DNA from: Selaginella moellendorffii
Taxonomy: Eukaryota; Plantae; Lycopodiophyta
Assembly: GCF_000143415.4 (NCBI RefSeq)
Contig: NW_003314293.1
Span: 836,062-900,061 of the forward strand
Direction of reading: 5' to 3'
DNA: 64,000 nt
Under the pieces are notes generated by a model. That model did no database searches and had not been told where the DNA came from. It was given only the letters and a program-made list of their open reading frames with translations. How positions within the stretch are numbered: the first letter of the stretch is position 1; each line of letters begins with the position of its first letter. The position numbers and the translations under genes are program-made. Positions 9,685 through 40,395 of the stretch are shown here, one piece after another.

Positions 9685-11138
9685 ACACAACAGGCTGATT
9701 GCAATGTACACAAAACTGGGGGGCCTGGACGACGCGACAAAGACTTTCGAGGAATTGCAACGCAAGAATCTATTTCCTTCGTGCTAATTCTCTCTCCTTA
9801 TGCACACGCTGGACAACTCAATCGCACTAAATCCCTCTTTGATACCATGCCTGCGTGGAATCTTCTCAGGCATGTAACTTTCTACAAAGCTAAAAGCTTG
9901 ATCAAAATGCCCGTTTTGGGCATACGTAAGGACCATCACATTACAAGCAATAAGATTTCTGTACGGCATTCTTTTAAACAAATTCTTCGTTTTTTGATAA
10001 AATTGTGTTTAGCATAAGAAGAAAGCCCAGAAACCCACAAATTAAAAGAATGCTGTTCCTCCAGCATAATTTCAGCTTCTTCAAAATACCCAGTTTGGGT
10101 CTATGCAGAAAGTATAGTTGTCCACGAGATAAAGACTCCCAAAGGCATTTGTAGAAAGGTCTCGGTGGCAAAATCAATTTCCCGGTCAGTGCGTACAGTG
10201 CTAACATAACGTTGCAAGAAATAATATTTTTATCCGGCATATTTGCAAACACAGCCCTTGCATACTCTAGATGCCCAGAACGGGTATATGCAGTTAGCAT
10301 CGCATTCCATGCAACTGGGATTTGGTTATGTGGACCTCCTTTCTCGCAGCATTGGCACAATACGGTCATGTGGAAGATGCCAAGCGTGTGTTTGATTTGT
10401 TGTTTATGACCAAATGGGCCAAAGGGATCTCATTGCAATGGCTGTGATGCTCTCGGCATATGCTCAAAATGGACAAATTGTCGAAGTGAAGAGATTCTAT
10501 GAGAGCTTCCCAGAATGGAACATGGTATCGACTAACACGATGCTTTCGGCATAGGCCCAGCATGGCTATCTAGATCAAGCACTCGTCATCTTCGACAATA
10601 TGCCCCAGAGAGACGAAGCAACTTGGAATGCTATACTCAAAACGGACATCTTTCAGATGCCAAGAGAATCTTTCACTCCATGCCCAGCCGCAATATCATC
10701 TCGTGGAATACCATTCTAGCTGGTTTTGTGGAAAGTGGACAACCAGCAGTGGTGAAGAAGGTTTTCAATGAGATGCAATCAACAATCCTTCCGGATGAGG
10801 CTTGCTTTGTCATGGTCCTCATTGCCAGCAGCCAAGATGGTTCGCCAGGGGATCCAGAACTTTAGAAGCATGGTTATCGACTATGGAATCCAACCTTTGA
10901 AGCAGCATTATTGCTGCATGGTTGATACTTTCAAGAGCTCGGCATTTGGATGTGGCAATGAAGCTAATTGAGAGCATCCTTTCGTTGCTGATGGAGTGGA
11001 TTGGATGTGCTTTCTTTCAGCTTGCGGGTGTCAAGCTCATGGTCATGCTGGCTTGAGTGTGGCAAGGCATACAATTGAGAAAGACGAGAAGAAAGCAGCG
11101 TTTTATGTGTCAGTGGCAAACATCTACTCAGAGCTTTG
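9685..11138 (+). pseudogene. PLS-class PPR protein pseudogene with internal inversion
   Basis: Motifs NRLIAMYTKLG.LDDA, WNAMLTAY..SGHL, ISWNTILAGF, HYCCMVD and E-domain-like W..FLSAC. Many frameshifts. 9864-10316 is inverted relative to copy 2. Confidence 0.9.
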
Positions 11139-11596
11139 ATGTTAATGAAGGATCGCGAGAGAGAAATCTACTGCTGAGAACCACTTTGTTTGTTGTGGAG
11201 CAGGGCTTGAAGCTGGAGCAGGAGATGCTGGATCACCCACTGCTTCAAAAGGCGGAAGAGATTGGCGTTATGATTGTCAACGACTCCTTTAGAAAAGAAT
11301 GCGTCCCTGTTGTGGTTTACAATCTCAACGATGCAACCGCAAAGGTGACAGCCGGAGTTTGAAGAGTAGTTCGTGAACGCAAAAAAAAAAATGGAGATTA
11401 TGTCGATACTCAGTGGCAATGGAATACTTGTTAGTGCGTGGTTAGGAATTTAGAATGGTCGTGGCAAACGGCATGGTACCATGGGCCACGCTGGATACCT
11501 CCACCCTTGAAAACCAAGACTCGAAAAATCATTGTATTTCAATTGTGATTTTGTGCCTGCTTGTTTGAAGCTAATTACAAAGAAAATCCTACAAAG

Positions 11597-12931
11597 CCTA
11601 CTGGGACGCATAAATCAAAATCACTCTCGGATTCATATCGAGGATTTCTTCTGCATAATAGTCCCTCAACATGTTGATGAAATAGCCATTGTAATCTAGA
11701 GCCGTCCAAAAGTCAGAGCTGGTGCTGGGCCTGGGATTTCAAGTAGCATCTGTGTAAGCGGCAGACGTTCTCGTGAAATGACGATCTCAGCTCTAGAACC
11801 TGTAAAATGGTTGGGATAATGAGAATATAACTCAAAAGAGATAAAACGAAACTCCCTACCCTTGAATATAGTTTGTGGATGCCATCCTCCCAGCTCCTAA
11901 TGTTCTTGAGCAAGGAGCAAAAGTTGAGCAAGCACTGCATTATGTTGTTCATGCATGACTTCACTCCTGTGTGTTCCAAAGAAACACACACAAAGACAGC
12001 AGAAGGCATAAAAGTCTTGCTTTACTTCGGTGCTTACTGATGGACTGCATTGATCAAGTACTTGTGGTGAACTACCTCCAAGTCCTGCATGTCCTTGATA
12101 TTCATAATACGTCTGCAAGGAGAAAAAACTTGCAGCACGTTATTCTATTTATCTCGTGTTTGATAGCACGAAGAAAATCGCCCCAGAAGCTGCGAATGTA
12201 CGTGACATTGAAAAACTGTGACAAAATGCCCGATTTGAAGAAAAACAAAGCCTCAATGAATTAGTGAAGAAAGTTGTTAGAAAGCACCTAAAAAGTTGAA
12301 GAGCTCGGAGTTTATCTGTCTGCTGCCCCGAAGAACTCAAAGAACTCAATTGACGCATGACTGCCTGAAATTATAGAAAAAAATAATGAAATGTCGGCCA
12401 TGCCTACAAGTAAAGATGAGATGCTTAATGCTCGATCGGCTGAGGAACCCAATTCAGGAGGAACCTCGTTTGCGAAAAGACTATCCTGTGTGTGCGGTTG
12501 AAGCAAGAAACTCAACTCCCGTCACAACTGGCAGTTTCCTGCTCGGAGCTAGCATTGGTATCACTGTCGTGATTGTCATTGCTGTCCTCACCAAGTCACT
12601 TCAGCAGAAGTGGCCTTGTTTAAGAGAAAACTTTTCAAATGCACATTTTACTGATAAAAACGACAGACTCACACTGTTTCTGGCTCTGATTCCGAGTCCT
12701 CTGAAGCTGTTGTTGATTCTTCCTCCTGTATAAACAAGTTAACATTGGAATAAAGAGAAAACTATAGACAACTACCAGTGATATTGGATACTTCAAACAA
12801 GGCGATCAGAAGCAGCTGGTTTGTGAGGATATTGAGACTGGATGTACGAAGCCAAAGAATACATCCATCTTTAGGCTTGCTAGTCTGCTGAACAAGCCGG
12901 AAGTTCCAATCATCTTGGTGGGGTCTCTGGC
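11597..12931 (-). other. Possible exons of an unidentified multi-exon gene or pseudogene
   Basis: Short minus-strand ORF blocks separated by GT..AG-like segments. No recognisable domain. Confidence 0.3.
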
Positions 12932-13775: not shown

Positions 13776-15110
13776 TGTCGCAAATGTGACTTCGGGTATT
13801 GAAAGTTACCTGTTGACTAGTCCTTACAGACACTCTTACCTTATTGCCACGATGGCAGGAGGTCGGTATTGCTAGACCCGTTATCAGTCTCCGCCTAAGC
13901 TAGTCTTCGCATGTGCACTTGACTAGATGAGCATAAGGAAGGAATTCCTAAGTGTCTATTTAGTCAAGCATACTTAACCTAGTTAGAGAAACTCATTCGT
14001 TGACTTGCACTTGTTAGTGTTGGGAACCCCCGCGATATTGAGCTTGGTCCCTCAATATCACTAGATGATAACTTACTGTGTCTGCCAAACACCCTCGCTA
14101 TCATGCCTTTTGTGTTACTCTCATTTTGGTCCCAAATGTTATTTATGGAAAGTGTCTAGATTTGCTCATTTGGCATATCTACGGAATGCAGAGATTAGCC
14201 TGAACACAATGGTGTTTGTCCTGTGTCCAAATTCACAATCTAGCGCCATTCCATATTTAGTAAGTTTCGAGCTTGTCCCAGAGACTAACTCCTGATACTA
14301 AGGGAGGCTTGGGGTGAAAGCCCAAAACATNNNNNNNNNNNNNNNNNNNNNNNNNNNNNNNNNNNNNNNNNNNNNNNNNNNNNNNNNNNNNNNNNNNNNN
14401 NNNNNNNNNNNNNNNNNNNNNNNNNNNNNNTGTGGCACACGTTAGTGTGCCCTAGAATATGGGCTTACTCTAGAGTAAGTACCACTAGCCAGATTTGGCT
14501 AAGGACGTTCTAGACTATATAAAGACATTTTTCTACATTGTCATCAGGTCTTAGGCCTTTTTCGGGTTCCAAATGTATAGTAGGGATAGTGGGTACGTTG
14601 GGCATGGCCAACCAACCTGAGGCATAGTCTAGCTCCTACTTGCGTGCCTGTTCTTGTTCTACGTTTGGCTTGGGTCTAAGCCCAAGCTCCACACCATGCT
14701 AGTTGGTGGAGTACCCATATCCTCACGTTAGGCCACCGGTATACTGAAATAGCACCAGACTCCATTTGGCTTCGTTTTGCGTGCTGGTCCTGGCATTGGG
14801 ATACTGGTTACTCTAGGACTGTTCCAAGTCACTCCGGACTCCTATCCCTTCACTCCTTGGGTTGTATGCTCGGGAGTTGCTCCGTGGTTCGGTTCCGTCA
14901 CTCCTCGGCTCCATGCTTGGGAGTTTGGCACCGTTCCTTCGTTCAGTGGCCCAAGGCTCTAAAACTCGGGTTCCACACCACTATCCTTTAGACATGTGGC
15001 ATGTGACATGTGGCATTTGTCATGTGGCACAAAGAGGGTTTAGGTTCCGCTCCATGGTTATCCTATGGTAAACCACCATAGGATAAAGGGTAAAAACCAC
15101 GTGCGCTACA
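13776..15110 (+). mobile_element. Family B long LTR spanning an assembly gap
   Basis: TGTCGCAAATGTGAC...GTGCGCTACA followed by PBS TGGTATCAGAG. Homologous to 40470, 45955-46833, 47994 and 49578. Confidence 0.8.
14331..14430. other. Assembly gap (100 N)
   Basis: Run of n. Confidence 1.
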
Positions 15111-19957: not shown

Positions 19958-20617
19958 ATGCTCTATTTCGTTAAAGTGGGATTTATTCAGTAAAATGGGA
20001 CTAGGTACAAATTTTCAAGTATTTGAAAATGACGTGAAATTATATGTTTTTTGTCCAGGGGCTAGACATATCTGGGGCATGGTGACTAGCGCGGTGACTT
20101 TGTGTCCAGACTGAGTCCATCTGGTTGTATAATAAATCTCATTGTCAAGGTGAACAAGCCAAATCTGAAGCTAAAGAAGAGCGATGGCATGCGCGCACAC
20201 ACTATTTGTTTGTTCATTGAGCGTGTGGTGAGCTTTCCAAGATGAACGTCATTCCTATTAGCCAGATATATAACTTAATGGTGAGAACATTTAGATATTA
20301 TTCAATGTTATCTTTTTCTAATGAATCTAATTGTGAAGGTGTAGCAAGAGGCATTGCTAGTCTGGAGAAGTCATTTAACTCATTTGACCCTTAGTGTATT
20401 TTCATGAAACTAAATAACATTCATATTATTAAGGAATTTCTCTAGTACCTTTTTTTTACGACATAGAGGCTTGCATTTCTTTCAAAGGTGATTTAGTAAA
20501 AGGCCTGAGGGCACATGCCATTCTATTTCTCAGACCGGTATTAAAATATACTAGTGCAAAGGGAAAAAGGTATTTGGTGATCAAGTAAATGGCATGAGGG
20601 CACACGCCATTATAAGC

Positions 20618-20890
20618 CTAAGCGCTAGTGGACACCTCCTTTTTGGTACTCTCAGCGGTACTATCATCCTTCTCCGGGTCAGTTGTTTTGCTTTGGATTG
20701 TTGTCTCTGACGTTACTGGGGCGTTCTCGATAGTTGTTAATGTTGCCGTTTGTTCAGAAAAATGATCACCTGGAGTATAGTACGGGGAGTTTGGAAGACT
20801 TATATATTCTACATCTTCACCTATCTCCTTCTCCGTCTCCTTTTCTGCCTCACTTACAGATTTTGTGCTTGCCATGAGAACGCTCTTCAC
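20618..20890 (-). CDS. Low-complexity acidic/Ser-Thr-rich ORF inside the transposon, possibly an exon
   Basis: 90-codon ORF with E/S/T-rich composition, flanked by palindrome-bearing intron-like AT-rich DNA. Confidence 0.3.
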   Translation of the reverse strand: MKSVLMASTKSVSEAEKETEKEIGEDVEYISLPNSPYYTPGDHFSEQTATLTTIENAPVTSETTIQSKTTDPEKDDSTAESTKKEVSTSA

Positions 20891-21588
20891 CCTAAAATAT
20901 GGAGTTCGTTGTGTTATAAAAGGAAATCAACACACACGCTGCAAGGGAATGATGGTACATAAAGCACGTAAGCCCACAATATGGGTTTATATGCCATTAA
21001 TATAGGCCACACGCCATATTATTAGATTTATGCACGTGTGATTGGTAAATGCATTTGTCACATCATCTTTGTTTTACCTCACACACTATATCAGGCCTAA
21101 TGAACCATATCACATGTGCGCACATGCTATATATATGGAGAAGTATTATGCAAGGATAGAAAAATTCAATGCATGATTGTGGAGAGCAATGGCATGAAGC
21201 CACATGCTAAATAACATTTTAGAGAAAGAATTAAAATAAAAACATGCAAACAGTACTGAGTGGACCAAGACTTAGAAGTGCACAATTGAATGAGGTATTT
21301 CTAATAAATATTTCACTCACCTCATATAGGAATGGCTACCACTCTCAAATGGCGTATCGCCTCATGCCATCACCTCGCAATTTGTTATAACAATCCGATG
21401 AATTCATATTCGGCTTGTTCACCTTGAACTTTAAGTAAGATTTGCTAGAACAACTAAGAATTTATACTTGTTATTTGTATCATCTCACCTAGGAATGGCG
21501 TAAGGCCACATGCCATCACACCTCCTCTGATTCAGATTCGGATTGTTCACCTTGAAATAAAATACATTAGAAACTTAGTAAAGGAATA

Positions 21589-24009
21589 TTAATGAATCTC
21601 ACCTTGAACCCGGGTTATGAATGCTCTTGCTGCATCTCTTGCATGGTCTGGCAAGGTGATGGTGGCACTCTGCTTCCGCATCCAACCATGCACAACATTA
21701 TCCACCGATATGCTCATGCTGGGATCCCTTGGATTCAGCACCCATCTCTTTTCTAGGCAATCCTTCGTATATCCGAAACTTGGCTTGAACCACTCCACAG
21801 TTACATTGAAGGAGTTAGTTTCCGCGTCCTCCTCTGCATCAGTGATGTAGCGCCCCACCCATATCATTTGTTTTTTATTACTGGGTCTGACAAGCATGAC
21901 CATTCCTTTGCAGACATGTACTGGATTGAATGTTGAATCCGGCTTCTTGTTCCTCGGCCCACAATAGTGATCCTCAACATCGTTATCTGTCACTGCATTT
22001 CCAGAGGACATTGTTCCGCTACTATCTGGTGCTCTGGGTTTTGGCCAAAAGGACTCTTCCAATTCTTCATATACAACCGGCCCATTTTGGATAGCAGATA
22101 TAATCTTCTCCCAGTATTCGATCAAAGGCTTGCACCTCTGAAAATAGGATTCTCCACCAAACACCAACCCCCTCTTCCAGAAGGCAATATGCTGTCTAAT
22201 CCCGGCCACTATACTTTCCTGGTCTTTGAGTCCATCCGGGTGCATTGGCCGTGGGGAACCCTGAGGAATCATAGGTTCCCTAGTTATGGGATCTCTCTTG
22301 AAGAGTTCAATGCCGTCCACTGGCAGCTACACTGTGTCCCATTCTCTCATCTTGTACCTCATCACTGGAGCACCGTCACGCATGCTGAAATGAAACTGAA
22401 GAGGCTTGGAGTGGCCAATCAGCGTTTCGGATCCGTCCCTGATGTAGCCTCTTACAAACCCCTTAAAGTTTGGAACCTCTGTCACAAGTGCAGCTTCAAC
22501 AGTGCCTTTGATGCAATTTTGGAATTCATCGTAGAGTTGTGGGAGGGTGAGGACATTGGATCGCCGAAGGGACTCTGCCAGGTGACTGAATATGGCATCG
22601 ACGTCTTCATGAGTGTGCCCAACCATGAGAAAGCCAAGTGTAACCGTTTCAAATATGCCTTTGGCAACAAGCATCGCCAAGTACGCGAAGACGTACATGT
22701 TTTTGTTCTCACTGCCAGCATTGTCTGTTTGGAGCAGAAGATGGGGTGGAAGGCCACATCGGCCGCAAAAACTTCCTTGAGATTCTGCTTCGTTTGGATG
22801 AGGCTGTGCATTCACCAGGCGACCAGCCTCGTCGGAATGGCATGAGGCCTCACGTGATAACCCTACAATCTGACGGCCAACATATTCACTGGGATGGCAT
22901 GGGGCCCCACGCGATACTGCAAGCCTTTGCTCCTCCTCCAGCTGAACCTTGTATGGGGTTCGATCGACAAGGGCCTTATGCAAGGGTTGGCCGTTTAGCT
23001 CAGTCTGCGCACTTTGCAGAGACCTTAAGTGTTTGGCTAGGGAAGCAATCATCATGTTTGCACCCCCGCCACCCCATAGAGGTACAAAGAAGTTCCCATA
23101 GTTCTGGGCACCATGCCCATGAGCGATTATGCCAAACAGAGACACAGGCAGCTGCATGGATGAAGAGATTGCCTTGGGGGCAGGATTGAGTCGAGGTAAG
23201 CACGTCTTTTTCTGGTCCATTTTGTCGTGGATGATGCAGAGGTAAGAGTCAGGTCTCTCCATGGAGAGAATCCTGTTATGATAATATGCAGTCCTGCAGC
23301 TTCTCTGCTCGATGTTGTGGTCGAGCCGCCTTCTAACCAACGTCTCTCGCTCTTGAGCGCTGCAAGAATTCTTCGACAAAGCCATTTTGATAGCAGTGCA
23401 CTCGTCACACTTTGAAAAGCTGGAGTACTTTTCTATACTCACATCCCTGAACCTGTTGCTCCACAATCTACTAAATCTAGATTGGCTCAGCTTCCTGTAG
23501 CCATTACTCTGGAGTTCCCGATTCACATCTTCCAATATGGCCCCCTTGGTATACATGGCAGGGAGAACTCATTGGGTGTCTCGAGTTTCATCTTCCAAAA
23601 GGCGGGTTTTATGTGATTGCTGCTCGCTACATGTCTCGACAAACCTCTTGAAGATTGCCTCTCCATATACAACATGACCCCTGGTTTTGTGAGTACCGTC
23701 GTTCCCATGGACTGCCTGTTGAACCCTTTGTTCCTCGAACTCAGTTTTGATTCTGTAGAATGTGGTTTGAGGGACTCCATAAATGATTCTCCATGCCTTC
23801 ATGCAGACCAAACCCCTCTGGAAGACCATGCTCGCAACACCGCAACTGCTCGTAGCGCCGCTTGCACAAACTGCCACTTGCATAAACTGCCGCTCGCAAT
23901 GGCGCTCGCAATGCCGCAACCGCTCGTAGACGCATAAACCAGAGCTCACAACACCGCTTACACAAGCAGCGCTCACTGCGCTCAGCAGAACCAAGAACAC
24001 GGCGCACAA
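21589..24009 (-). pseudogene. DUF7869/Sola1-like DDE transposase with a C-terminal SH3/Tudor-like extension
   Basis: ORFs 23569-24009, 22327-23556 and 21589-22320 are in one frame, separated by single stops (Q*VLP, V*LP). Motifs FSKCDEC, IIHDKMDQ, QTDNAGSENKN, GFLMVGHTHEDVDAIFS. The 5' end is uncertain. Confidence 0.85.
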
Positions 24010-24685
24010 AAATGATAGACCTAGGAATGATTCGAGAATTCAAAAATAACACACGCTTGAACGTCACATCAAATCCTCTGACAAACCAGATCTTATGATT
24101 CCTCTGACAAATTTCAAACTGAGTAGCTTCTAGACTTTGCTGTTGGAGGTTGAACTTTGTCACATCATGTCCTTGCCTCGATCCAGCTGTGCCATGTCAG
24201 TGATTCGAACTTTGCCATGCCATGTCAGCGATCCGCGCCAAGATTATTCGCCGTGTAAAGGAATAATTATGCTGTGTGTGTACGTCCATTTATGGCAATA
24301 TAAGGCCATACGCCATTCAAAGAATAATGCTAGTCGAGCATTTTTTGGTGCATTTTTGGGTTCAAAATTGCATGAGCCCACACGCTATAAAGTTTACCTG
24401 TACCAAAAATAGAAACAGCTTTATTTACTTGGGAATTTAAGTGGTTGAAGCATTTTTAAACTTACAAACACATGCCCTACTTACATTCCTTTGGTTGCTT
24501 AAAATTCAAAAATATTATAAACCTTTCTTTTTATTATCTATAATATTATCTATTTGCATCCCGTCATGTTTATAGCTAGCTTTCGTTTGTCCCCTTCGCT
24601 AGCCTGAGATACATCTGCTCGGCATCTGCCTCTTACAGCATTTGCCCAGAAAGGGCATCTTTCTTCACGCAGCATTTGCCACATA

Positions 24686-24704
24686 TTTAGGGTTTAGGGT
24701 TTAG
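24686..24704 (+). promoter_or_regulatory. Telo-box-like TTTAGGG tandem in the divergent promoter region
   Basis: TTTAGGGTTTAGGGTTTAG lies between the transposase and the cargo gene. Confidence 0.45.
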
Positions 24705-25707
24705 CAATTCAGTAGCTTGATAAACATGCAAATACAGAACTTGATGCAAAATCCTTTGATATGTCAGGACCAAAAACACATTTCAATAGAGAGGGTCCTT
24801 TCATTTCATAACTTCTTACGTAGATCTTGGTGAAACCAGAGTTAGTGAAGTTGGTTTCTTGTGATCCCGCATCTGATTGTGATGTCCCTTTGCAGTGTCG
24901 ATGGAAAGGTCAATGCACACCAAACTGTAGAATCTTGGAGCAAAATAACGGTCGGATCTATGGCAAATGCCCCTGAAACATTGTAAGGCTCGTGTGGTCT
25001 CATGTGGTGTCCGATCAAGATGCTTCTTTGCAGGGTCATCAAGAAGGACATTGTATACCATTCTTTATTTAGCTGAACATCTGGCATTTTTGGAAATACA
25101 AGATGCTTTGGAATATCCAATCATGCATGGTATAAATATAGCGAGGGTATTAAATGATATCCCAATCATGATCTTTCTTTTGGATTTCGCATGCATGCAG
25201 TCCGAGGAATGATGACGTTGCGGATTTCTTTTGGATTTCACGTGCATGCATGCGCGCGGCGATCCAGAAATTAATGGTGGCGCCCAAGTCCGAGGAATGA
25301 TGACGTGGCGGGATTACCAACCGTCGTGACATTTCGCGCGTGTGAGGTTAGGTTTTGCATCGTACTCGTGCTCGCATCACGCTCCCACTCACGATCACGC
25401 TCACATTCGCGCTCATCTACCTTCTTTACAGGTTTCTCGTGTGCATCGGCGTCCACTCGCGCTTGCATCACACTCGCGCTCGTGTGCATCGGCGTCCACT
25501 TCAAGACACACCCAGTTTGGAACTTCGCCGCCAACTCCGCCGCCCACTCCGCCACCCACATGCAGCCCACTTGGCGTCCCGGGAGATTTCAGCGCCACTC
25601 TCCAACTGTAAGTGGCAGAGTAGCCTTGCTGCTACGATCCGCTGCACACACAGTGCACATTCGCCAGCGAGTCCGGCCTCGATTGTCACGCCTCCATTCG
25701 GCTTCAA

Positions 25708-28700
25708 ATGGTAAGTCTTTTAGGCCAAGTAGAAAATGGCATGAGGCCACATGCCATTCAGTAGCAACATTGGCATGCACCGATTGAGCTCTCGAGTGTA
25801 GTCCGGTTACAGATGGCGTGTAGCCTCACGCCATCTTAGGATGCAGCCTCAAGACATCTGATGCAGTGGTGAATGGCGTGTGGCCTCACGTTATTTCCAG
25901 CTGCTAGCTTGTCATCTGTCAGCTCTAATTATTGTGCATTTCTGAACAGGCGAGGAATTGCGTTCTTCTTCCAGCCACTGTCAATGTGGATGCAGAGAAG
26001 GGGGAGGAGCTCACCAGTTGGACTTTCAGGATGGAAGGCGAGGATCTGAGGCTGTACAACACAGATGGTGGGAGAAAAGAATGCATGGGGATCCTCATCC
26101 AAGTGACAGACACTCCATGCAGTTCCATGCAAGAATATGGACTGGCACTTGTGGTAGAGACAGCGTCCGCCTTCAAGATCCACCTTGCATATCCTAGCGG
26201 CTTCCCGGAGGGGGGCAGCGGCTATGAGGAATTCCTAGAGGGAGCTAGGGAGAGGTTGTCCAGGAGGCCCACAATTTCAAAGACGCTGCGGGTCTATGAA
26301 GATCACATGGAATCCACGGACCTCACCTACGGCGATGTTCAAAAACTATATTCCAACATTGAGCCGTTGAGAGTGCCTCCAGTTCGTGAAGCGAAGGGGA
26401 AGGGGGTCGATTTGGAAACTACCCCGAAGCAAAAAAGGGTGGTCAAGCTCAAGCCGACGTCCGACTCTCCTGCTCCAAAAAAGAAGCTACTCGGTGATGC
26501 CATTGCCTCGGGTTCGAACACTACACCCACCAAAAAGAAGAGCCGCAAAGAGCAGAAAGAGGAAGAAGAGGCAGCAAAAATCGTCGCAGATAATAGTACT
26601 TGTTACTATTCCAACAAAGTATATACAATCGACGTGAGCCGTATCGACATCCAAAACAAATACAACCACAGGCTAGTATCTGATGAGTGGGTGGAGAAAC
26701 TGAAGCAGAAGATGCTGGCAAGTCCAGTAACACCCGACATCGCAGACGTGATCCCCTACTACCGAACAATGAAGGGCGAGACGAGGTTTCCAGACTTGAT
26801 CAATAGGAAGGTGTTGGACGATCAGAACATCCGGTTCTATGCCGTCTCCGGGCAGCATTTTAGCTTGGCGATGCAAGAGATAGTTGTGGATATTATGGTG
26901 GGCGAGGAGGTGAAGAAAGTCTTCAAGACAAGAGTTGTCCGCCTGATAAAAGGCAACTCGCCCCTCCGATCTATCATATACATCTCCCACGCGCAGAATG
27001 TCAAGCAAGAAATGTGCTACAAATCGGGTCTGCACGAGACATTGGCACAGACACGGAAGCTCTGGGTTCAACTGAAGAAGCCACAAAAACCAGGACAAGG
27101 ACGTGCACTAGCAACTAGCGCCTGGCAGGTAAGCCTCGTTGCATGTGGCATAGCATGTGGCCTCACGCCATTTCCATTGCAGGAATTCTCGAGTCTTCTC
27201 TTGAAAACACTGGGGGTCAATGACACACTCCGCATCCATAACATTCTACTCGTGACAAAAGTTGTTTTTGACAAATGGGTAGATGTGCTGAGGAGGTACC
27301 ATGATGGGGAGTTGCTAAACTCAATGGGTGTGGAGGACGGCCGGAAGCCCAATGATTTGAAGCTCAATGCCTTGCGTTTCTCGCGGTCTCTAGACGACGA
27401 CGACCTTCTGACAGTGGCTAATGCTCTTCTACGTGGTGAGGTAGTCTTCACCAAGACTAAAATGACTCCCGGCCATATTGTGACATACGAGGACTTGTGC
27501 ACGACTCTGAGAGCTTGTGCGCTATTGAAGGATTGGATCTTCGAGCAAGTGGCTGTGGAGAGGGTGAGCATCGACACCACGCAAGAGATGATGGAAGCGC
27601 TGGAGTTGTCAAATGAAGACATCGACGAGTACGTGAAGGGGGCCCCCAAGTTCATCGATCTGCTGCGGGATGCCACGAAAAGTAAAGCTGAGAAGTTGGA
27701 TCAGTATCCAAATTTCATTAAGAGGGATGTCGACCGCCGGCTTCAGAAACAGCTCGACCCCGCAGCAGAGGCCTATCGAGAACCTTACCAGGTATTTGTG
27801 AATTCGGATGAGGATCAAAGGTGGAGGAGCATCGTTTCCCGTGGAGATGAGCAGGTCAAGAACATCTTTTGTGTGATGGACTTCACAAACGAGGAGATCA
27901 CTCATGCAGACGAAGTCAGCTCCATCATTGACTTAATGGTGGGACTTGCGGAGGTGGAATCTTCAGTCCACTATATGATCTATGACTCCGAATCCTATCA
28001 CAAGTTCTGGAAGGCCTTGAACGAGGTGAAGGCTCGGTTGAAAGGCAAGGAGATGCGGGAGATCCATGGGATAATGGCTAAGAAGAAGATACCGACGAAT
28101 GTCTGCATCTTCACACTCACCCTTGTTATTGGTCCTGCAGCAGAGTGGGACTAGAGTGACTTCCCAGCTTCGTTCGACAAGGCCGATTGAATTGATCTGA
28201 GGGAGGTCAATTTACCCATGCCTGAGGAACTGAAGACGGCTATAGAGCTTTCAAATCCAAAGAAAGCTCCAGGTGCAGCATGGGAAATGCTCAGCTGGGT
28301 CTTCAACGCAATAGCGGGTGGGTCACCTGCTTCCGACTCCAAGGGCAACTGCGTTGTCGAGTACAACTGCAGCGGACTATTCTTTTGAGCCGCACTACTC
28401 AAGGGTGTCCCGTGTGTTGCGGTGACAAACTCCATTGAAGAGGTGACTTCAATGGAGCATATAATTACAGTTGCCAAAGAAAAACAGTATCTTCTTTGCA
28501 AACTTGGTGAGTACGCACTTTAAGTTTAAATGTTATCTCACAAGCTCTGTATGCAGGAGCGTGGCCACCCCCAGATGCTGAAACGGCGTTAACAGCTACT
28601 GTTGAAGATACCCATGTTGGGCCGAGCTCACAACCTGCACAAGGTAAGGTCACGTGAGGCCTCACGCCATTTTGATTTTAGATCGTTGTGAATATTCAGA

Positions 28701-29563
28701 CACGAGGACTGAAAAGCGCACTGGTGGCGCGTCGAAGAAGGACAAACAGACAAGCAATAGGAAAAAAGGAGGTACAAATTATATTTGCAATGGCGTGTGG
28801 TCTCATGCCATTCCTTGCAGGAGACACTTCTTCAAAGGCAAAACAGGCAAGCACCAACCAAGCTCAAACTGACAGTGGTCATAAAAAGTGAAAGCACGTT
28901 GGACAGTCGTCGGGATCAGAGGCGTTTGATTCGAAAAGGAAGAAGGGCAACGAAAAGATGATAGGTAATGCCTCGCGGTTATGGCGTGTGTGCTCATGCC
29001 ATTCATTGCAGATCAAGGGCTGAGTGAAAGCAGCCAGTCACCACCTCCTGACTCAGATTCCTATGGCGGACTCCCCTTCCCCAATCTCAATGGAGAGGTA
29101 CAATGGATGAGGGATGCTTTTCAAGTCAGGGCCACGTTTTTCTCATCTCGTCGTCTTCGAAGGGTGCAAGAACATGCAGAAACCATGTTAAGACAGTCGG
29201 GTGAGGATACGGTTCTAGGTCACGCACTAAAACAGGCTATGGATGTCTTGTATTTTGAGATGGAGACTCGGCCAGATGATTTTCCCAAGATGGTCCTAGA
29301 AGAACAAGCCATCCAGCCTGAGCAGCCTATGGAAGAAATGCAGGAGGGGGATGAGGAGCCAGAGAAAGATAATGAGCAGGAAGAGTAGAAGGACGAAGAG
29401 GAGGACAAAGAAGAGGAGGACGAAGAAGAGGAGGACGAAGAGGACTTGGATGGTCCTCACAATGGTGACGATCACAATAACGACGACGACGATGATGACG
29501 ACGATGGCCAGCCTGAGGTGGCCAAAGAGTAGCGGAGGAAGGTCATACAAGACAAACCATCAG
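25708..29563 (+). pseudogene. Transposon cargo gene: ParB/Srx-like domain, degenerate amino-methyltransferase-like domain, basic and acidic low-complexity tail
   Basis: ATG|GTAAGT at 25708. In-phase introns at 25711-25949, 27129-27182, 28507-28556, 28644-28699, 28772-28820 and 28965-29011. ParB-like YTIDVSRID..NHRLVSDEWVEKLKQKM..FYAVSGQH. The frame continues past 28154 through single stops. Confidence 0.7.
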
Positions 29564-29835
29564 GTAAATAATAATACATCCATTCCTAACCTTTTACCAT
29601 TTCTAACATTGTCCATGTAGGTCGCAGAGCAAATGGTAAGTAGAGATTATTCAGTTGAATTTACAAACTCTAGCCTTTAATGTCGAGGAAGGATAGTGCC
29701 AAGCAAGGGTCGAAACGTATGTCCAATCCTTCAGAATCAGCAGTGTGCCCAAGTGATATCGGTCCTAGTTCCTCAATAACAGTTGATGGTAAATACAGTA
29801 TAGTTGATTCAATGTGCTAATGAGTTTGTTTTTAG

Positions 29836-31330
29836 TAGCACGGGAGGATACCATCTCAATCGAAGGGAGATATTTGGACATGCATATGGATCCGCCAGTG
29901 GACTCTACTTGCCTGCAAGAGTCATCAGAGCTGGTGGAGGCTACTATCCATATCAATGCCAAGCAAGCTGACCACGCTCCACTTGATGCTGCCCATACCA
30001 CTAAGTCAATCTTGTCCACGTATCCAACTAACGGTGACCAGGCGCCATTGGACCCGCATGAGGCCGCCCCAGCCGCCGAGCCGGTCGTATCCTCATTTCC
30101 AACGGACTCAACATGTGCCCAATCGTTTGACTACGCACCGTTGGAACCTCCCTACACCGCCCCTGCTGCCTGTTCGGTCATGTCCACTTTGCCAACGGAG
30201 GCACCAGCTGAAATGGCGTGTGATCACACGCCATCGGAACCACCCCATGCCACTATTGAGCCAGTTGTACCAGAGTCTACAGCTGAAATGGCATGTGCCC
30301 ACACACCATCGGATGCGATTGACCCCACATTGCAGAGGAGAGTATTTCCGCCCTTCACGTTTCCTCGACCAAAACCCTCTCAACGACCATCGGGAGCACC
30401 ATTCGCTAATATTGTAGATGGTAAAATTGACTTGTACCATTTTTTATATTGACGCATTTCATTTCAGAGTCACGGCGAAGGTACTGTATCGTTTTTGATC
30501 TGAACGGTGTCCTTTTCTCCCATGAGCGTGGCTCGTCCTCGAATGTCATTGCACCCTCCAAAGCCTGTGGTCGCAAGTTGGTCAAAAGAGACAAATTCAC
30601 ATTAATCACACGGGAGAAACTGCGGGATCTAATAATGACCATGCGACACTTAAAACAGAGGGCCGGGTTCAATTTGCAATTGGGAGTTTGGACATCCATG
30701 ATGCGCCACAATGCATTAACGTTGCTACAGATGATGCACGATCAGACGTGAGTAATATTACCATTTGACTTTCTCCTAACGCAGAAGGATTGCTTGACTA
30801 TGGTCCATGTGAAGGGTAGCAAGCCCATCTTCGTCAAGCCAGAGGCTGTAGTGATGAACCGGACTGCTAGGTCAAGTGAAATCCTCATCATCGATGACTC
30901 GCCGATTAAAACTGCAGCGAACACGCACACATATGCAGTGCACCCCATCTCTTGCAGTATGGAAACTAGGGAGAAGAAACCGTATGTTCTGGGGGACCTT
31001 GCAAAACGGCTTGGAGCGATGGTGATAGAGAACCGGCCAGTCCAGGAGGTGGCTGCAGAAATCAACCAAATGGCAGATGGAACGGTATATCAGAAGCCAT
31101 TTGATCAGACAGACACCAGTCATCATTTATGGCATGTATATTGTCTAGCCAAGCACTATCCGCATCTCCATAATCTGCTCAACCGGATGGGTTCTTCGAC
31201 CACTGAACATGAGCGTGGACGTATTAGAGAAGAGATGGCATTACTATTGGGTTTAAATCCTGATAGTGTGGAGAGTGATGAAATTCCAAGATTATTGTAT
31301 AGGCGTTGGAGGCAAAAAATAACAGTCTGA
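29836..31330 (+). pseudogene. Pro/Ala-rich exon plus FCP1/NIF-like HAD phosphatase domain
   Basis: Intron 30421-30467 is in phase. Motifs CIVFDLNGVL, LGVWTSMMRHN, FDFLLTQKDC, LIIDDSPIK. One in-frame TGA at 30749 separates same-frame ORFs 30449 and 30794. Confidence 0.75.
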
Positions 31331-32408
31331 GATGGTATGTATTTATTTAAAAATGTAACTTATTATGGCATGGGGTTCCATGCCATTGTATTAATATTAA
31401 AAGACAATTCTTTGAGAGGATTTGCATTATACTAGAAGTGTTACAGCATGTTATTGGAAGTCTACGAAGTTGTTTTATTAATAAGGGGAAAGTAAAGATT
31501 GAATGGGGACTTGGGCTCCACCTAGACTCGGAGCAACTAAGCCAATATTAAAAGGATGGAAAGAAATTGAACGACGATGACAAGGAGAAGAGAGAGGTGA
31601 AGCAATGGCAGGGGGAGGAGAAGTGATTGAGTAGACATTTCCTTGTTTAAAATAAAATGGCATGTGCCTCAATGCAGTTGAATTTTGTTATATTTATATA
31701 CTATATAAAGGTTTGGAAACCTTATTTTACAAGTGGGATAATGACAATTCCCACTTTAACGAAATAGAGCTTGTATGGTGTTTGATGCTTAAACGTATTG
31801 TTGGGTCTTGAGAATTTATATTAAGGTGAACATATGTGAAGTTGTAGGTAAGAAGAAGTTGATTATGTCTTAAGAATTTGTATTCCTAAATTAAGAGTCA
31901 TTCTTTCTCTTGGATGGAAAATTTTCCATAAATTTTTTAAAACTTTTCCAATGGCTAATATATTGATCATTTTTCTCAAAAACCATTTTGTTTTTATAAG
32001 CTATTGCAAACTAGTAAAGGGATTGGAGTTAACTTTAGTTAGTTTAAACTTTAGTATGTAGTTTGTATCATGTGGCCCCAAAAGGGATGTTGACTTTTAG
32101 GGCTAAGGCAATTGAGTTGGATAGAGTCTCGAGTTTGTGTAGAAAAGTGGCTGTTATGCTTTTCTAAAAAAGATGACCCTTGTGCCTTTTTTCTATATTG
32201 ATATATACTTGGTAAGTTGAACCTTCTTGTGAGACACAAAATCCTTAGGCCCCAAAGGGGAGTTGAAAGGGTGCCACGTGGTAGTGGTGGAGGTAAGAGC
32301 CAAATGAGCATAACACATTTGGACTAAAAGCTTTGACTCGAGAAGTTGAGAGCGGGAGTGGAACTCCCAACGAAGGGCTCAAGGAACGAGCATGAAGCGA
32401 GCAACAAG

Positions 32409-33100
32409 TGAGTCTGAGATGGACTTGAGATGGAGTCCGAGATGGAGTCCGAGATGGACTCGAGATGAAGTTTAAGATGGACCTGAGATGGATCCGAGAT
32501 GGAGTCCGAGATGGACCCGAGATGGAGTCCGAGATGGGTCCGAGATGGAGTCCGAAATGGACCCGAGATGAAGTTTGAGATGGACCTGAGATGGATCCGA
32601 GATAGAGTCCGAGATGGACCTGAGATGGAGTCCGAGATGGACCCAAAATGGATCTGAGATGGAGTCCAAGATGGACCTGAGATGGACTCGAGATGGAGTC
32701 TGATATGGACCCGAGATGGACCCGAGATGGAGTTCGAGATGGACCCGAGATGGACCCGAGATGGAGTCCGAGATGGACCCGAGATGGAGTTCGAGATGGA
32801 CCCAAGATGGACCCGAGATGGAGTTCGAGATGGAGTCCAAGATGGATCCGAGATGGATTCTAAGATGGACCCAAGATGGAGTCTGAGATGGAGTCTGAGA
32901 TGGAGTCTGAGATGGACCTGAGATGGAGTCCGAGATGGATCTGAGATGTATCCGAGATGGAGTTCGAGATGGACCTGAGATGGAGTTGGAGTCCGAGATG
33001 GAACCAAGACTGAGACCGAGACCAAGACCGAGTCCGAGTCCGAAACCGGGACCGAGACCAAGACCAAGTCAGAGTTTGATTTTGAGTTCGAGTCCGAGTC
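32409..33100 (+). repeat. 11/12-bp minisatellite (GAGATGGAGTCC / GAGATGGACCC)
   Basis: Dozens of alternating units decaying into a 6-bp CCGAGT/CCGAGA repeat. It produces spurious repetitive ORFs. Confidence 0.95.
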
Positions 33101-36100
33101 TGAATACTAATATAGACTATTGGGTGAAAGCCCAAAGCAATCGTCCCCCCAGAGGGGGGGGGGGGAGAGTGTGGGATTGGAGCCCAGTGGAGCTAGTTTG
33201 GCTAGGAAAGGCTAGTTTGGCCTAGGAAGGCCATACCCAGCTGTTGGGTGATGGGATGACCACTAGGAAGTGAATATTGACTGACAAGCAAGGTAGCTTG
33301 GTGAAGTGTTCAAAAGCCGGCTCTAGTTCCCCCAAAAGATCGAATGGTCAATGCTCCCAGTCCAAGTGTGGGTGGCACTATCTACTTGGATACCTGGCAT
33401 GGCTCAATAGAACCTCGCTCTAAGCCCATAGCTAGAGCACCCAAAGGCAAAAGGCAGGGAGAGTACCCATGAGGCTCGCATAAAGCCATGGTATTCCGAA
33501 ATGTTGTTCCAAAGTCCCAGACTGTGAAAAGGAAGAGGAGCAGTCCTCTAGTGTAGAGACCAAGGATATTGTCATGTGAGGAGGAAGTCCCAGAGGACCG
33601 TGGGACTTAGTGATCGGGCCTATGGGCCTTGATCCAGTGGTAGTGTTGGCAAACATGGCCATGGATAAAAAGGGATTTGGTGGGGACTAGAAAAAGGATA
33701 TTGGGAAAGGCTATTCCCCATGCTTGCGGGCATCCTAAAGATGCTAAGAAGTAGATCTGGGATGATCACTCATGGATGGATAGCCCAGTCTTTGAGAGAT
33801 GGGACTGTGATGCAGGTGGTGTTGGACCACCGGTGTGGCCAAGGTGAAGGGGAATGGCCTTAGCGTAATAGGTTGATATGTCGGTGGTACCTTGAGGTGT
33901 CGATCATAGGATCCGACATGTGGAGCACTTGGGCCAAGTGCAAAGTTTGAGTGGCAGGGATGCCATTCTCTGGGCTAACAAGCCCAAGTCCGGAATAAGA
34001 CTTATGAAGGTTGTGAGTGAGACTCCGACAAGTGGTCGGAGGTGTGGTTAAGTGACTAAAGTAGAATGGTTGCTTACATGGTTGTTTATACTTCTATTAC
34101 ATTAGACTCTATGAGAGTAGTGAACTCTCACTAACCCTGACTTGGTCTTGGTAGCCTTGTGCCTTGGCTGAGGATAGTGATGTCCAACTTAGTTATTTGA
34201 GTTTAAGGTGTTAGTATCTATACTATAGCTTTATCTATCAAGAGGTTGTGTACCAATATAAGTCCATCTCATGGTCTACACTTTAGTTTTGACTGAGTGT
34301 TAATCATGCATAGCTAGCCTCTTCATGGCATACCTAGAGCTATTGGCTATACGCATTAGTGAGTTTATTGTAGCTGAGTTGTATTCGAGTGGTCATTTAG
34401 TTCATGTTTGTCCTTGTACATGAGGTGTTACCTTCTTGTTAGACAAATATATAACTTGATGACGTGACATGAGTTTAGTGTTTGGGTCTTGTAAAGGCAA
34501 GTTGAAAAGTGATTATTAGTTGTTTTGTGACTAGTGGTTGCTTGTAAACTTCATTGAGGACTACTAACACTTGCTTCCCTTGATGATGATTTAGCAGTGA
34601 TAAACTTACTTTACTAGATAGTGTTACAAAGGATTGTATCATTAGTTTACATGGTTTTTCTTTGTTAGTGTCTCGACTCTACCTCTGTTGATATCATTTG
34701 GTTATGTTTAGTCTCTGATGTTGGATTAACTAATGTATTTTCGACTTTGGTTAGCTCGGTTGCTAGAGAGTTTTAACTGGTGATTCACTTTTTACTTTCT
34801 TCTTGCTTTGTTATGGTGTTGATGGCATTGAAGTGATGCTTTATTATTGACATTATTATTATTGAGATTCAAGTGAAATGAGATGTTTCTCCGTAGGATT
34901 GATATTGAGTTTCATTAATCTCAATGTAGATAGTGTTAATGATGTGGTTGTAACTTTGTGTTATTAACATTTATGCATTTATTAGTTAGCAACTGAAATA
35001 ACGTTCAAACAAGCTAAGTGGCAAGTTGAGTTAGTTATATTCTAAACGAAATTATTTAGTAGGGGTTGAGCTTTTGCTATATTGATCATCGATGATTCTT
35101 CTTGTGTTTGTTATGAAGTGAGTTATGTCATGCTATAGAAAATAGATTCATAGAGGATCTTTTGGTGTCACTTGTTGAGCATAGCTTTATTGTGCTTGGC
35201 TTTTGGATTAATGCAGAAATGTTTTTCATTAGCTTAAGCATTATAAAGTTTAGCTTATGGATGTGTTGAGAAGGATATTGTGGGTTGTACTGTGATTTCT
35301 TCTTTAGCATTAAAGTTAGTTTATGCGAGACTCATAATCATTACTAGGCATAACTTGGCTATAGGCTTCTTCAAGCTTTTAGTTCTTTGAGTTTTATGCT
35401 CATTGTTCCATTTATTAAAAGTTGTTGGGGAAGGCATTTTGGCTCATTAGCTTTGATGTTGAAATTAGTATTTGCATCTAGCAATCATTGGTGATGATTA
35501 ATTATCATTTAGGATAGATGATTATTCTTGTCAAAAGGTTTTGCTTGATTATTGTTGATATAGAATAATTTGTTGTTCTTTGGGATAGTGAATTCTTTTT
35601 TCAATGATGATTCTATATCTTTTATTAATAGGATTATTAATGATTTTTCATAATTTTTAGTTGTTCTCTTTGATAAATTATGGCTTTTCATAATACTATA
35701 TGTTTTTTGTGGTTTGCCTTAGATTGGTCTCTTGGGTTTGAGATATCAATAGGATATTGCTGATGCTTATTTGAGAAACTTTGGTTCCCTAGTATTATTG
35801 ACTATGACATATTCAAATTAATTAATGCGATCATTGGCATAAATGATTGTTTGATTGCTTTGCAACATTCATTCTATTTTGTTGATTATTACTACAATTG
35901 GTTCTGATAAATTATATGTTATTTCCTTCGGGTGATATATTCGCAAGCATTTTGCTTGCTAGTCAATAATACTTTGTATTCTTGTAGTTGTCTTTCATAA
36001 GTTGTTTGGCATACTATCTACAATCTTTGATAGTTAAGTTTTATCATTAAGTATTTTTTATGGTATACTTGCTATTGAATTTTGTTGGATGGTGAATCTT

Positions 36101-36220
36101 ATATTTCCCAATTATGATGATCTTAATGGTTTCTATACTATCATACTAGTTTATCTACTGATAACTTACTTGGAATACTTTTGTGTTCTAATCTAAGATT
36201 TATTCATTGATAATTAAGTC
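33100..36220 (+). mobile_element. Highly decayed, C-depleted LTR retrotransposon internal region
   Basis: Starts with the family B-like gggtgaaagcccaaagc..ggggg motif. T-rich and stop-ridden. 36077-36220 recurs at 39745-39890 upstream of a PPT and family B LTR. Confidence 0.45.
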
Positions 36221-36373
36221 TATGTGTCAACATCCTTGAAATTTAAACATTTCCGCTCCTGCAAAGATGGGAAGGACCATTTCAACATAGCACTCGCGTG
36301 CTCTGGATGTTAGATTGACAATCTCAATCCTATTGCAACAAAAACTTGGTGAAAGAAACCGAAACCCCTCGTT

Positions 36374-36660
36374 ATGCTTTATTTCGTTAAAGTGGAACTT
36401 ATTCAGTAAAGTGGGACATTAATTAGCATGTGTCCACATGCCATTTCCTAGTACTTAATTAATATTTATTAATATTTCTATCAGTTTTTTAATTTATTTT
36501 TTATATTTCACAATATTATAACACAAAATCATATGAAAAGTTTTTAATTTATAAATTATAAAGCTAAAACTTCAATTTTTTATTGTTGTTATAAAAATGG
36601 CATGTGGCCACACACCATAAGTGGGATAATGAAAAATTCCACTTTAACGAAATAAAGCAT
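36374..36660. mobile_element. 287-bp MITE derived from the Sola-like element
   Basis: TIRs ATGCTTTATTTCGTTAAAGTGGAA ... TTCCACTTTAACGAAATAAAGCAT. Perfect 4-bp TSD CGTT (36370-36373, 36661-36664). AT-rich interior with two copies of the 22-bp palindrome. Confidence 0.92.
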
Positions 36661-36751
36661 CGTTCGATTTGATTAGAACTTACATGAGAGGAGAGATTGA
36701 TCATCTCATCCACAACAAAACCTCTTTATGATCAGTAATCAGTCACGAATT

Positions 36752-37155
36752 CTAGCAGCAGCAGCAAGAGCAGCGGCAGCAGCAGCAATCGTCCTTTGGC
36801 TTGGGCTTTTCCACCTTGATCTCCTGGACGGATTCCACAGAAATACACTTGTGTTTCTTCTTGGTGGCCTTGAGGATGTCGTCCACCTTGAAATCACCCG
36901 TGACGGTGTAAAGGGGATCGTTAACCTCCACTTTCTTCACACCTGCAAGAGCACGAAGATCTCTTGATCAGCGATCAAAATTTGGGAGAATTTGCGGAAA
37001 TCTACACTCACCGGAGACGCCGTGATAGATCTGAGACATCATCCTGTCCTTGCATTTGTTGCAAGAGTCCACTTTCAAGACAACCTGCAGCACAGAGCTC
37101 GAGATCAAACAAGGCTCAACGAAATCAGAGACGCAATGCTCACCTTCCAAGCCAT
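36752..37155 (-). CDS. Heavy-metal-associated (HMA) domain protein with poly-Cys C-terminus, 91 aa
   Basis: Exons 37155-37144, 37084-37012 and 36942-36752 with in-phase GT-AG introns give MAWKVVLKVDSCNKCKDRMMSQIYHGVSGVKKVEVNDPLYTVTGDFKVDDILKATKKK...DDCCCCRCSCCCC. Confidence 0.85.
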
Positions 37156-39261: not shown

Positions 39262-40395
39262 GCACTTGATATTATCTATCTATTGACCTTTGGGTTTGGG
39301 CCAGTATATGCAGACTGGCTTCAGCACTTCGTGTGCATGGTGAAATCTCTAATTATGGGGTAGCTACTGTAAATTGGTCACATCACCTGCCTCTCTCTCG
39401 ATGTTCCTTATTTCCTTAAAAAGGGTATAACTGCATAATTAACTCTAACTACTTGTTTACAGTAGTTTATCTAAACTTTACCGACGGATTTGGTTTCTTT
39501 GCTCAAGAGGGTTGGGGCCTCTGGCTTCTCTCTCTATGTCCCTACAGGCAGGGGTGTATCACACTTTTGTAAACTGGGTGACACATAGAGCAGTAAGGGT
39601 GGCTAACTCTATTAGTCATTTCCTTGTTGGCGATAACCGGAAGGTGTCTAAGTTAGTAGTGCATCCGCATTAGACAAAGAGGTTACGCTAACTTGTTTAA
39701 GTTGGTGCATTTCTCACATAGTGTGATCACTATGAACTTTTTCTAGAATTTTGTTGGATGGTGAATCTTATGTTTTCCAATTATGATGATCTTAATGGTT
39801 CCTATACTATCATACTAGTTTATCGACTGATAACTTACTTGGAATACTTTTGTATTCTAATCTAAGATTTATTCATTGATAATTAAGTCTCTAAGATATC
39901 ATTGTCTCTGACTTTGATATTATCTATCTATTGACCTTTGGGTTTGGGCCAGTATAGGCAGACTAGCTTCAGCACTTTGTGTGCATGGTGAAATCTCTAA
40001 TTATGGGGTAGCTACTGTAAATTGGTCACATCACCTGCCTCTCTCTCGATGTTCCTTATTCCTTTAAAAAGGGTATAACTGTATAAACAACTCTAAGTAC
40101 TTGTTTACAGTAGTCTATCTAAACTTTACTGATGGGTTTGGTTTCTTTGTTTAGGAGGGTTGGGGCCTCTAGCTTCTCTCTCTATGTCCTTGTTAGCAGG
40201 GGCATATCACACTTTTGTAAACTAGGTGACACCTAGAGTAGCAAAGGTGGCTAACTCCGTTGGTCATTTCCTTGTCAGTGACAGCTGGAAGGTGTCTGAG
40301 TTGGTAGCATTTGAGTTAGAGAAAGAAGTTGCCTTTTAACTCATTTAAGTTAGTGCATTTCTCATATAGTGTGATCATTGTGAATTGTTTCTAAA
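39262..40395 (+). repeat. Imperfect ~480-bp direct duplication in a decayed retrotransposon 3' region
   Basis: acttgatattatctatctattgacc... at ~39262 recurs at ~39911. Confidence 0.85.

Follow-up and report, generated by a model that had tools for sequence, protein, structure and literature searches.

In a 64,000-nucleotide stretch of Selaginella moellendorffii DNA (assembly GCF_000143415.4, contig NW_003314293.1, positions 836,062 to 900,061 of the forward strand; hereafter the window, numbered from its first letter), a 22-bp palindrome recurs throughout a decayed DNA transposon that carries a transposase frame and, on the opposite strand, a cargo gene whose product contains a ParB-like domain (Table 1). 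Seven of the copies lie in predicted introns of the cargo gene, and a preliminary reading of these letters (the original prediction) had proposed that the introns are built around the palindrome.

The transposon and its cargo gene

The left and right terminal inverted repeats are identical at 23 of their first 24 bases. A miniature inverted-repeat transposable element (MITE) nearby retains only the same terminal repeats and one palindrome near each end, 49 bp and 42 bp from the ends. The left end of the large element cuts a gypsy reverse-transcriptase fragment, and comparison of the flanks gave no matching target-site duplication around the 11.8-kb element; the right flank does not continue the gypsy sequence, and thus no target duplication survives. 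Neither the palindrome nor the terminal repeat led to a related DNA locus in the searches, and among the 49, 149, 116 and 27 pattern matches obtained with the ParB and transposase alignments none was confirmed.

Table 1. Positions of the transposon, its genes, introns and palindromes in the window
Feature	Position	Strand	Remarks
DNA transposon, decayed	19958..31772		11,815 bp; bounded by terminal inverted repeats
Left terminal inverted repeat	19958..20001	+	44 bp at 91% to MITE left end
Right terminal inverted repeat	31731..31772	-	40 bp at 90% to MITE right end
DUF7869 (PF25273) transposase frame	21589..23892	-	two premature stops; palindromes 22837, 22894
Cargo gene	25708..31330	+	predicted 11 exons, 10 introns, 1643 codons; 7 premature stops (3 TAG, 4 TGA)
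ParB/Noc/sulfiredoxin-fold domain	26550..27128	+	structure model, predicted local distance difference test (pLDDT) 70
Degenerate amino-methyltransferase-like region	27771..28506	+	weakly supported, via relative P0065
Last exon, NIF/FCP1-type HAD phosphatase-like domain	30468..31330	+	PF03031, 25.2 bits (cut-off 21.8); one stop read through
Intron 1	25711..25949	+	239 nt, phase 0, after ATG-only coding exon; copies 25736, 25813, 25873; CTAAT branch-like at -22
Intron 2	27129..27182	+	54 nt, phase 0; copy 27150, CTCAC A at -18
Intron 3	28507..28556	+	50 nt; no palindrome; CTCAC A at -17
Intron 4	28644..28699	+	56 nt; copy 28649 directly behind donor; separate TTGAT at -25
Intron 5	28772..28820	+	49 nt; copy 28790, CTCAT A at -16
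Intron 6	28965..29011	+	47 nt; copy 28981, CTCAT A at -16
Introns 7-10	29564-29620, 29636-about 29680, 29789-29835, 30421-30467	+	no palindrome; intron 8 acceptor assumed decayed
Left-arm palindromes (n = 7)	20184, 20500, 20589, 21109, 21189, 21349, 21495 (range 20184..21516)		
Coding palindromes (n = 4)	22837, 22894; 30213, 30288		transposase frame; cargo exon 10
Other palindromes	24367, 31365; 31657		31657 is a weak gapped copy
MITE	36374..36660		287 bp; same terminal repeats; 4-bp target-site duplication CGTT; palindromes 36423, 36597

The transposase frame matched PF25273 at 142.7 to 145.5 bits (cut-off 26), and DUF7869 is present in 34 of the 36 transposase relatives listed. One relative (P0003) is 92% identical to the window copy, which lacks the front part of the P0003 transposase; the others are 26 to 41% identical over long stretches, and those that are named come mostly from the liverwort Riccia. 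When positions 5 to 30 of the Sola1 RNase H profile were compared with the transposase by eye, D..QK..LPRLN was shared at the first-aspartate segment and the following aromatic stretch was unlike. Assignment of the element to Sola1 (Sola-like), checked by eye, is plausible, and the 4-bp target-site duplication of the family MITE has the length listed for Sola1-1_Ec32 in the portion of PMC12477816 that covers that element. At 21321-21602 (minus strand), the transposase frame apparently enters a 52-nt intron rich in A and T and then a short last exon, which is tandemly duplicated with a palindrome after each copy; a 62-nt unit similar to this duplicate is inverted at 20130-20206.

The cargo model keeps one frame over 1643 codons with no frameshift, given the one assumed decayed acceptor. 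Its seven premature stops, which the original prediction had not mentioned, mark this copy of the gene as dead. The best Foldseek match of the first domain was a Noc-DNA complex (E 4.5e-5), followed by ParB, Srx and PadC, and VIA-align placed it with PadC (Z 9.1, root-mean-square deviation [rmsd] 2.6, 97 residues aligned) and KorB (Z 8.9, rmsd 2.6, 94 aligned). The methylase-like region had no Pfam match, and its single-sequence structure model (pLDDT 40) was uninformative; the region aligns weakly to the Riccia relative P0065, in which PF01555 was detected below the cut-off (E 5.8e-4). P0065 has the same domain order: ParB-like, N6_N4_Mtase and NIF.

Word-based protein searches with the cargo gene gave no matches, PDB sequence searches gave blank or chance matches, and a full HMMER search with the cargo protein gave 12 weak matches. 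Eight of these were aligned; the alignment omitted P0049, which is short, P0042, a repeat protein that matches elsewhere in the sequence, and P0041 and P0044, which match the downstream part and were used in the intron 2 comparison below. By eye, P0040 appears to show similarity ahead of the first internal methionine, in line with the ATG before intron 1 being the start codon. In the ESM Atlas the cargo protein lies adjacent to fungal DUF3723 clusters (0.95 to 0.96), which we treat as a lead only. Between the methylase-like and phosphatase-like domains, a low-complexity linker (28507-30467) contains eight consecutive phase-1 introns around symmetrical exons of 15 to 585 nt, among which no clear exon duplication was found. 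A candidate eleventh intron at 30748 was discarded, since the NIF domain continues across it without a break; this false intron was still included in the single-copy folds and in the CTCAY placement and T-form tests described below and was dropped from the final gene model.

Distribution of the palindrome and its probable binder

The symmetrised consensus of the palindrome is ATGGCRTGW-GGCC-WCAYGCCAT. A pattern search with the centre left free and at most 2 mismatches gave 18 matches against 0.02 expected, a count reached by none of 100 shuffles. A weight matrix, which was trained on 19 of the 23 copies it reports, found 21 copies within 20184-31678 and two in the MITE; 22 of them scored 20 to 36 bits, as against a best score of 5.7 bits among 51,809 outside positions. 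Every copy thus lies inside the transposon or its MITE. The seven intronic copies listed by the original prediction were all recovered inside GT..AG segments at the same positions, and the other 16 are distributed over the element arms, the transposase frame, a cargo exon and the MITE. The transposase pair, which P0003 also encodes, falls in the stretch ahead of the DUF7869 match; the cargo pair falls in a proline-rich duplicated segment of exon 10, within a 41-bp duplication.

Copies are concentrated in non-coding DNA. Element-wide, non-coding DNA, introns included, has 17 of the 21 copies (p 4.5e-5), and within the cargo gene seven of nine copies occupy introns, which offer 481 of the 5206 possible placements (9%; p 1.7e-6). 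Density was 10.1 copies per kb in introns, 4.3 in the left arm and 0.4 in cargo exons, and when introns were compared with the remaining non-coding DNA of the element, seven of 17 copies were intronic (p 0.002). These p values are optimistic because the copies are not independent, some being local duplications. The placement supports the earlier suggestion that introns accommodate binding sites within the gene without cost to the protein.

The two arms of the palindrome vary independently. Watson-Crick pairs were found in seven of 19 copies at positions 9/14 (Fisher p 0.35) and in nine of 21 at positions 6/17 (p 0.67), a pair that may also have been exposed to CpG decay. Positions 9/14 were mismatched in six of the seven intronic copies, and the most perfect hairpins (-13.0 and -13.9) were those of an exonic copy and a right-arm copy. 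Folding of whole introns 2, 4, 5 and 6 gave z values against shuffles of +1.20, -0.38, -0.95 and -0.36, respectively; the palindrome stem formed in introns 5 and 6 and did not form in intron 2. Rfam families gave no match at E up to 1. Independent arms and folds no better than those of shuffles fit a DNA site for a dimer and do not fit an RNA hairpin. Copies also occur on either transcribed strand, in DNA outside genes and in the MITE, which fits a DNA site.

The original prediction had suspected a link to splicing in the form of a hairpin switch. In a fuller version of this account, the intronic copies would be RNA hairpins that hide the branch point and switch splicing, retention of the 54-nt intron 2 included. 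Isolated copies of introns 5 and 6 do fold at -10.5 kcal/mol with a branch-point-like CTCAY inside the stem, which persists in the whole intron, and a few unspliced RNA reads fall in intron 1. Intron 2 is, as had been noted, in frame and stop-free, a feature shared by 60% of 20,000 shuffles of its sequence and therefore unremarkable. Retention, however, is opposed by the Selaginella gene model P0054, which has a gap of exactly the 18 residues encoded by intron 2, reads WQ-EF across it and aligns at 83.6 bits once the intron is removed, up from 72.4 bits. Given also the mismatched intronic stems and the folding results, we regard a hairpin switch as quite improbable; the evidence points instead to a branch point as the link to splicing.

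We conclude that the palindrome is probably a target in duplex DNA for a dimeric, element-encoded protein, the ParB-like cargo protein being the best candidate, and that the predicted introns are ordinary short introns of older date, which probably accumulated copies by tolerance. The sites of bacterial ParB, Noc and KorB are palindromic DNA present in many dispersed copies. The likeness of the cargo protein to ParB/parS, Noc/NBS and KorB/OB lies in the N-terminal domain fold, known here from a predicted structure, and identity is 10 to 16%. We infer that a dimer of the cargo protein would bind the palindromes along the element and would aid its transposition or hold off its silencing, with the three copies in intron 1 perhaps serving as an operator. 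Copies would be kept wherever they are harmless, and the short introns would be the only free space in the 5.6-kb gene.

Several points weigh against this conclusion, beginning with the dependence among copies noted above. The fold match is confined to the N-terminal ParB/Srx domain (residues 14 to 154) and covers no helix-turn-helix, and sulfiredoxins have the same fold yet bind no DNA. The excess of copies in introns over other non-coding DNA is not predicted by tolerance alone. Finally, no spliced read or contig was found over the predicted junctions in the four RNA sets described below.

The main rival binder is the transposase itself, for which the palindrome would be a subterminal or internal site, the cargo protein being unrelated. 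Such a role would suit the subterminal copies of the MITE and the density of copies in the left arm. It would also suit an asymmetry of the palindrome at positions 9/14, which reverses near the middle of the element as sites facing the nearer end would show: A-A forms number six to the left and none to the right of 25780, and T-T forms one and five (p 0.015), with the cut at 25780 chosen post hoc and p rising to 0.06 at the true element midpoint. Eleven copies, however, lie at least 1.5 kb from either end, inside both genes, and the palindrome bears no relation to the sequence of the terminal repeats. Moreover, the densest cluster is in cargo intron 1, where an autoregulatory operator might be expected. 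We therefore consider the transposase an unlikely binder.

Introns of the cargo gene and a possible branch-point overlap

The introns first described were recovered as such: introns 2, 4, 5 and 6 run from GT to AG and hold one copy each, which takes up 39 to 47% of their length, intron 3 holds none, and intron 1 follows an in-frame ATG and holds three. The gene, however, extends to 31330 with four more motif-free tiny introns, so that the palindrome is carried by four of nine tiny introns, where four of five had been counted, and by five of ten introns overall. Tiny introns average 51.5 nt with the palindrome and 49.2 nt without it, and this equality of size indicates that the palindrome replaces intron sequence and is not added to it. 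In PMC6157073, as far as its treatment of Selaginella goes, intron lengths in this plant group with the short fungal type, and lengths of 47 to 56 nt are thus not extraordinary. Nor is the ATG-only exon special: the passages of PMC1626468 on start-codon introns report that phase-0 introns directly after the ATG are over-represented in eukaryotes, flowering plants included, and intron 1 of the cargo gene has the same arrangement with no difference.

The position of intron 2 appears, from protein alignments, to be old. Seven of the eight aligned relatives (23 to 29% identity) end 1 to 25 residues past the valine at the donor position, presumably as unspliced gene calls, and P0044 and P0059 begin just past the intron. 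P0041, a sister model of P0054, has two extra residues at the intron; both are predicted gene models, which are distinct from RNA evidence. The intron 2 position is thus common to distant relatives, which speaks against an intron built around the motif.

If the introns had been created by the motif, as introner-like insertions with their own splice signals, or copied from one another, they should resemble one another from end to end and occupy new positions. Likeness of this kind was not found. Introns 2, 5 and 6 do share the motif, its spacing to the intron end (9 to 11 nt) and the acceptor; the segments 28790-28820 and 28981-29011 agree at 90% over 31 nt; and introns 3 to 10 are all phase 1 in the low-complexity linker. 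With the motif masked, however, the 5' flanks were not convincingly related (p 0.14 for introns 2 and 6, p 0.42 for 5 and 6, and p 0.02 for 2 and 5, among six pairs), and five introns of the same size lack the motif. Together with the age of the intron 2 position, these results make creation by the motif very unlikely, and we conclude that the introns were not built around the palindrome.

The original prediction had looked to RNA junctions as a check on the introns. RNA was taken from three raw-read runs (about 12% of each) and one contig set (X1), which make up four of the 23 listed runs, and no spliced junction appeared in them. The raw reads had no depth over most of either gene; in two of the runs, three unspliced reads each fell within intron 1 and carried the letters of another copy of the element. 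X1 contigs, which may be DNA, run unspliced across introns 1 and 2. The contig over intron 1 has four base differences, none of them in the three palindromes, which would indicate retention of the palindromes in a second family member and is not significant. The cargo introns are thus predicted junctions that RNA has neither shown nor refuted. That some of them are unreal, the pattern arising spuriously from the modelling of a dead gene, would accord with the missing junctions, the assumed acceptor of intron 8, the location of introns 3 to 10 in a region with no protein relative for checking and the failure of the candidate at 30748. We give this explanation hardly any credence, since one frame joins three domains in the order of P0065, intron 2 is matched by P0054, and a branch-like A falls within a 4-nt window in eight of the nine tiny introns.

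Branch points were sought with the consensus yTnAy. In these eight tiny introns the A of a yTnAy falls between -15 and -18, counted from the 3' end, a window taken from the data themselves; the same was true of 5 to 22% of shuffles of each intron. All five motif-free tiny introns set this position by themselves, and in introns 2, 5 and 6 the CTCAY of the palindrome (at -18, -16 and -16) is the sole yTnAy between -10 and -30. Random placement would put three of four copies at the branch position with p of about 0.04. Moreover, the T that gives CTCAY on the plus strand is present in six of seven intronic copies compared with two of 15 others (p 0.002) and with none of five non-intronic copies to the right (p 0.015). 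A 22-bp site fills almost half of a 47- to 54-nt intron, and a copy should therefore survive in a tiny intron only if the branch region is left free, as it would be in intron 4, or is supplied by the copy, as the CTCAY may do in introns 2, 5 and 6.

One way in which the palindrome could serve both functions is as an operator fused with a splicing signal. The right half-site of the palindrome bound by the ParB-like protein would be the branch point of introns 2, 5 and 6, and binding sites could not be lost without losing the splicing of the gene for their own binder, which would lock protein to target. We put this forward tentatively, as possible and rather doubtful, and a number of observations count against it. 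Six of ten left-hand copies have the CTCAY form on the minus strand, such that the change of polarity near the middle of the element also explains the T of CTCAY. Two of the T-bearing intronic copies, both in intron 1, are remote from the branch region there; in host introns the branch-like A is found at -21 and -26; and all branch-point tests were post hoc. The overlap is proposed here as new, no literature search having been directed at sequences with a dual role as binding site and branch point, and the VANC passages of PMC5735166 do not mention a motif serving as a branch point.

Related systems and neighbouring sequences

Self-binding motifs in transposon introns, ParB-methylase cargo and ParB cargo beside inverted repeats each have a precedent. 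The first are found in the Mutator-like VANDAL elements of Arabidopsis: according to the passages of PMC5735166 on the anti-silencing VANC proteins, VANC21 binds motifs in introns, intergenic regions and terminal regions of VANDAL21. As here, the motif of a second protein piles up in non-coding DNA, including the introns of that protein's own gene. VANC motifs, by contrast, are 8- to 9-bp tandem repeats and the motif in the window is a dispersed 22-bp palindrome; the transposase belongs to another superfamily, and a ParB-fold protein takes the place of VANC. Binding and demethylation were shown for VANC, whereas here binding is a prediction.

ParB-methylase cargo occurs in Sola1-1_Ec32 of Ectocarpus. 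As described in the portion of PMC12477816 devoted to it, this DNA transposon is likewise large, duplicates 4 bp of its target, as the MITE does here, and encodes a ParB-like protein on the opposite strand. That protein also has an N4/N6 methyltransferase domain, for which the cargo protein has a weakly supported counterpart, and was proposed to bind and modify its own element. Sola1-1_Ec32 measures 21.5 kb, with AACCG termini and a 282-bp repeat, as compared with 11.8 kb, ATGCT termini and a repeat of about 24 to 44 bp for the Selaginella element. The NIF phosphatase-like domain is extra relative to the Sola1-1_Ec32 protein, the two proteins being likened by description and not by sequence. 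The string "palindrom" is absent from the main text of PMC12477816.

The third precedent is that of the Plavaka (EnSpm) elements of Bostrychia, with their accessory gene PAG3. In the sections of bioRxiv 10.1101/2025.02.11.637652 that concern them, a ParB-like accessory protein is accompanied by inverted repeats proposed as its sites. Those repeats form tandem arrays beside the gene, unlike the single copies within introns found here, and the protein carries an oxygenase instead of a methylase-like domain and accompanies another transposase. Literature searches found no description of the land-plant form of the cargo, in which ParB-like, methylase-like and NIF domains are combined, nor of DUF3723 and ParB together, and the protein type is not described in the parts of Iyer 2016 (PMC4738411) consulted.

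The ParB precedents are proposals, and the Selaginella element adds to them a well-delimited candidate site of 22 bp, natural variation of that site in 23 copies and a MITE that shows what is retained in cis. With a land-plant form bearing an added phosphatase-like domain, the idea that a ParB cargo protein binds its own element can be put to a direct test. Should the branch-point overlap be real, it would show on a small scale how DNA binding and splicing can constrain the same sequence, and it would give a transposon a means of preventing a protein and its target from diverging.

Upstream of the cargo ATG, 40 nt at 25605-25644 match an abundant RNA (111 to 237 reads with the same loose ends in the three raw-read runs, and also X1). 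Rfam gave no match at this site. The flanks of the matching RNA look to us like the 3' end of large-subunit ribosomal RNA (rRNA), and the segment is possibly a captured rRNA fragment.

Adjoining the right terminal repeat is an AT-rich 4.5-kb block (31773-36230) with an 11/12-bp tandem array at 32390-33100; the end of the block recurs at 39746-39890, and the block is possibly the long terminal repeat of another element that displaced the original flank. A small host gene of 91 codons (36749-37155, minus strand), which resembles one for a heavy-metal-associated protein, has a cysteine-rich tail and two short introns (59 and 69 nt) across which the frame stays open, and the MITE lies about 90 bp past its stop. 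These introns and the protein relatives of the element would by themselves suggest a non-seed land plant of the Selaginella type as the probable host. The window also includes an assembly gap of 100 N (14331-14430). Farther out, approximately 4200-12000 and 55990-63770 form a duplication, nearly identical in its two halves and about 51.75 kb apart, which holds AAA-ATPase-like frames (6340-7983 and 58090-60156) and a PPR fragment and of which a 314-bp piece is also present in inverted orientation.

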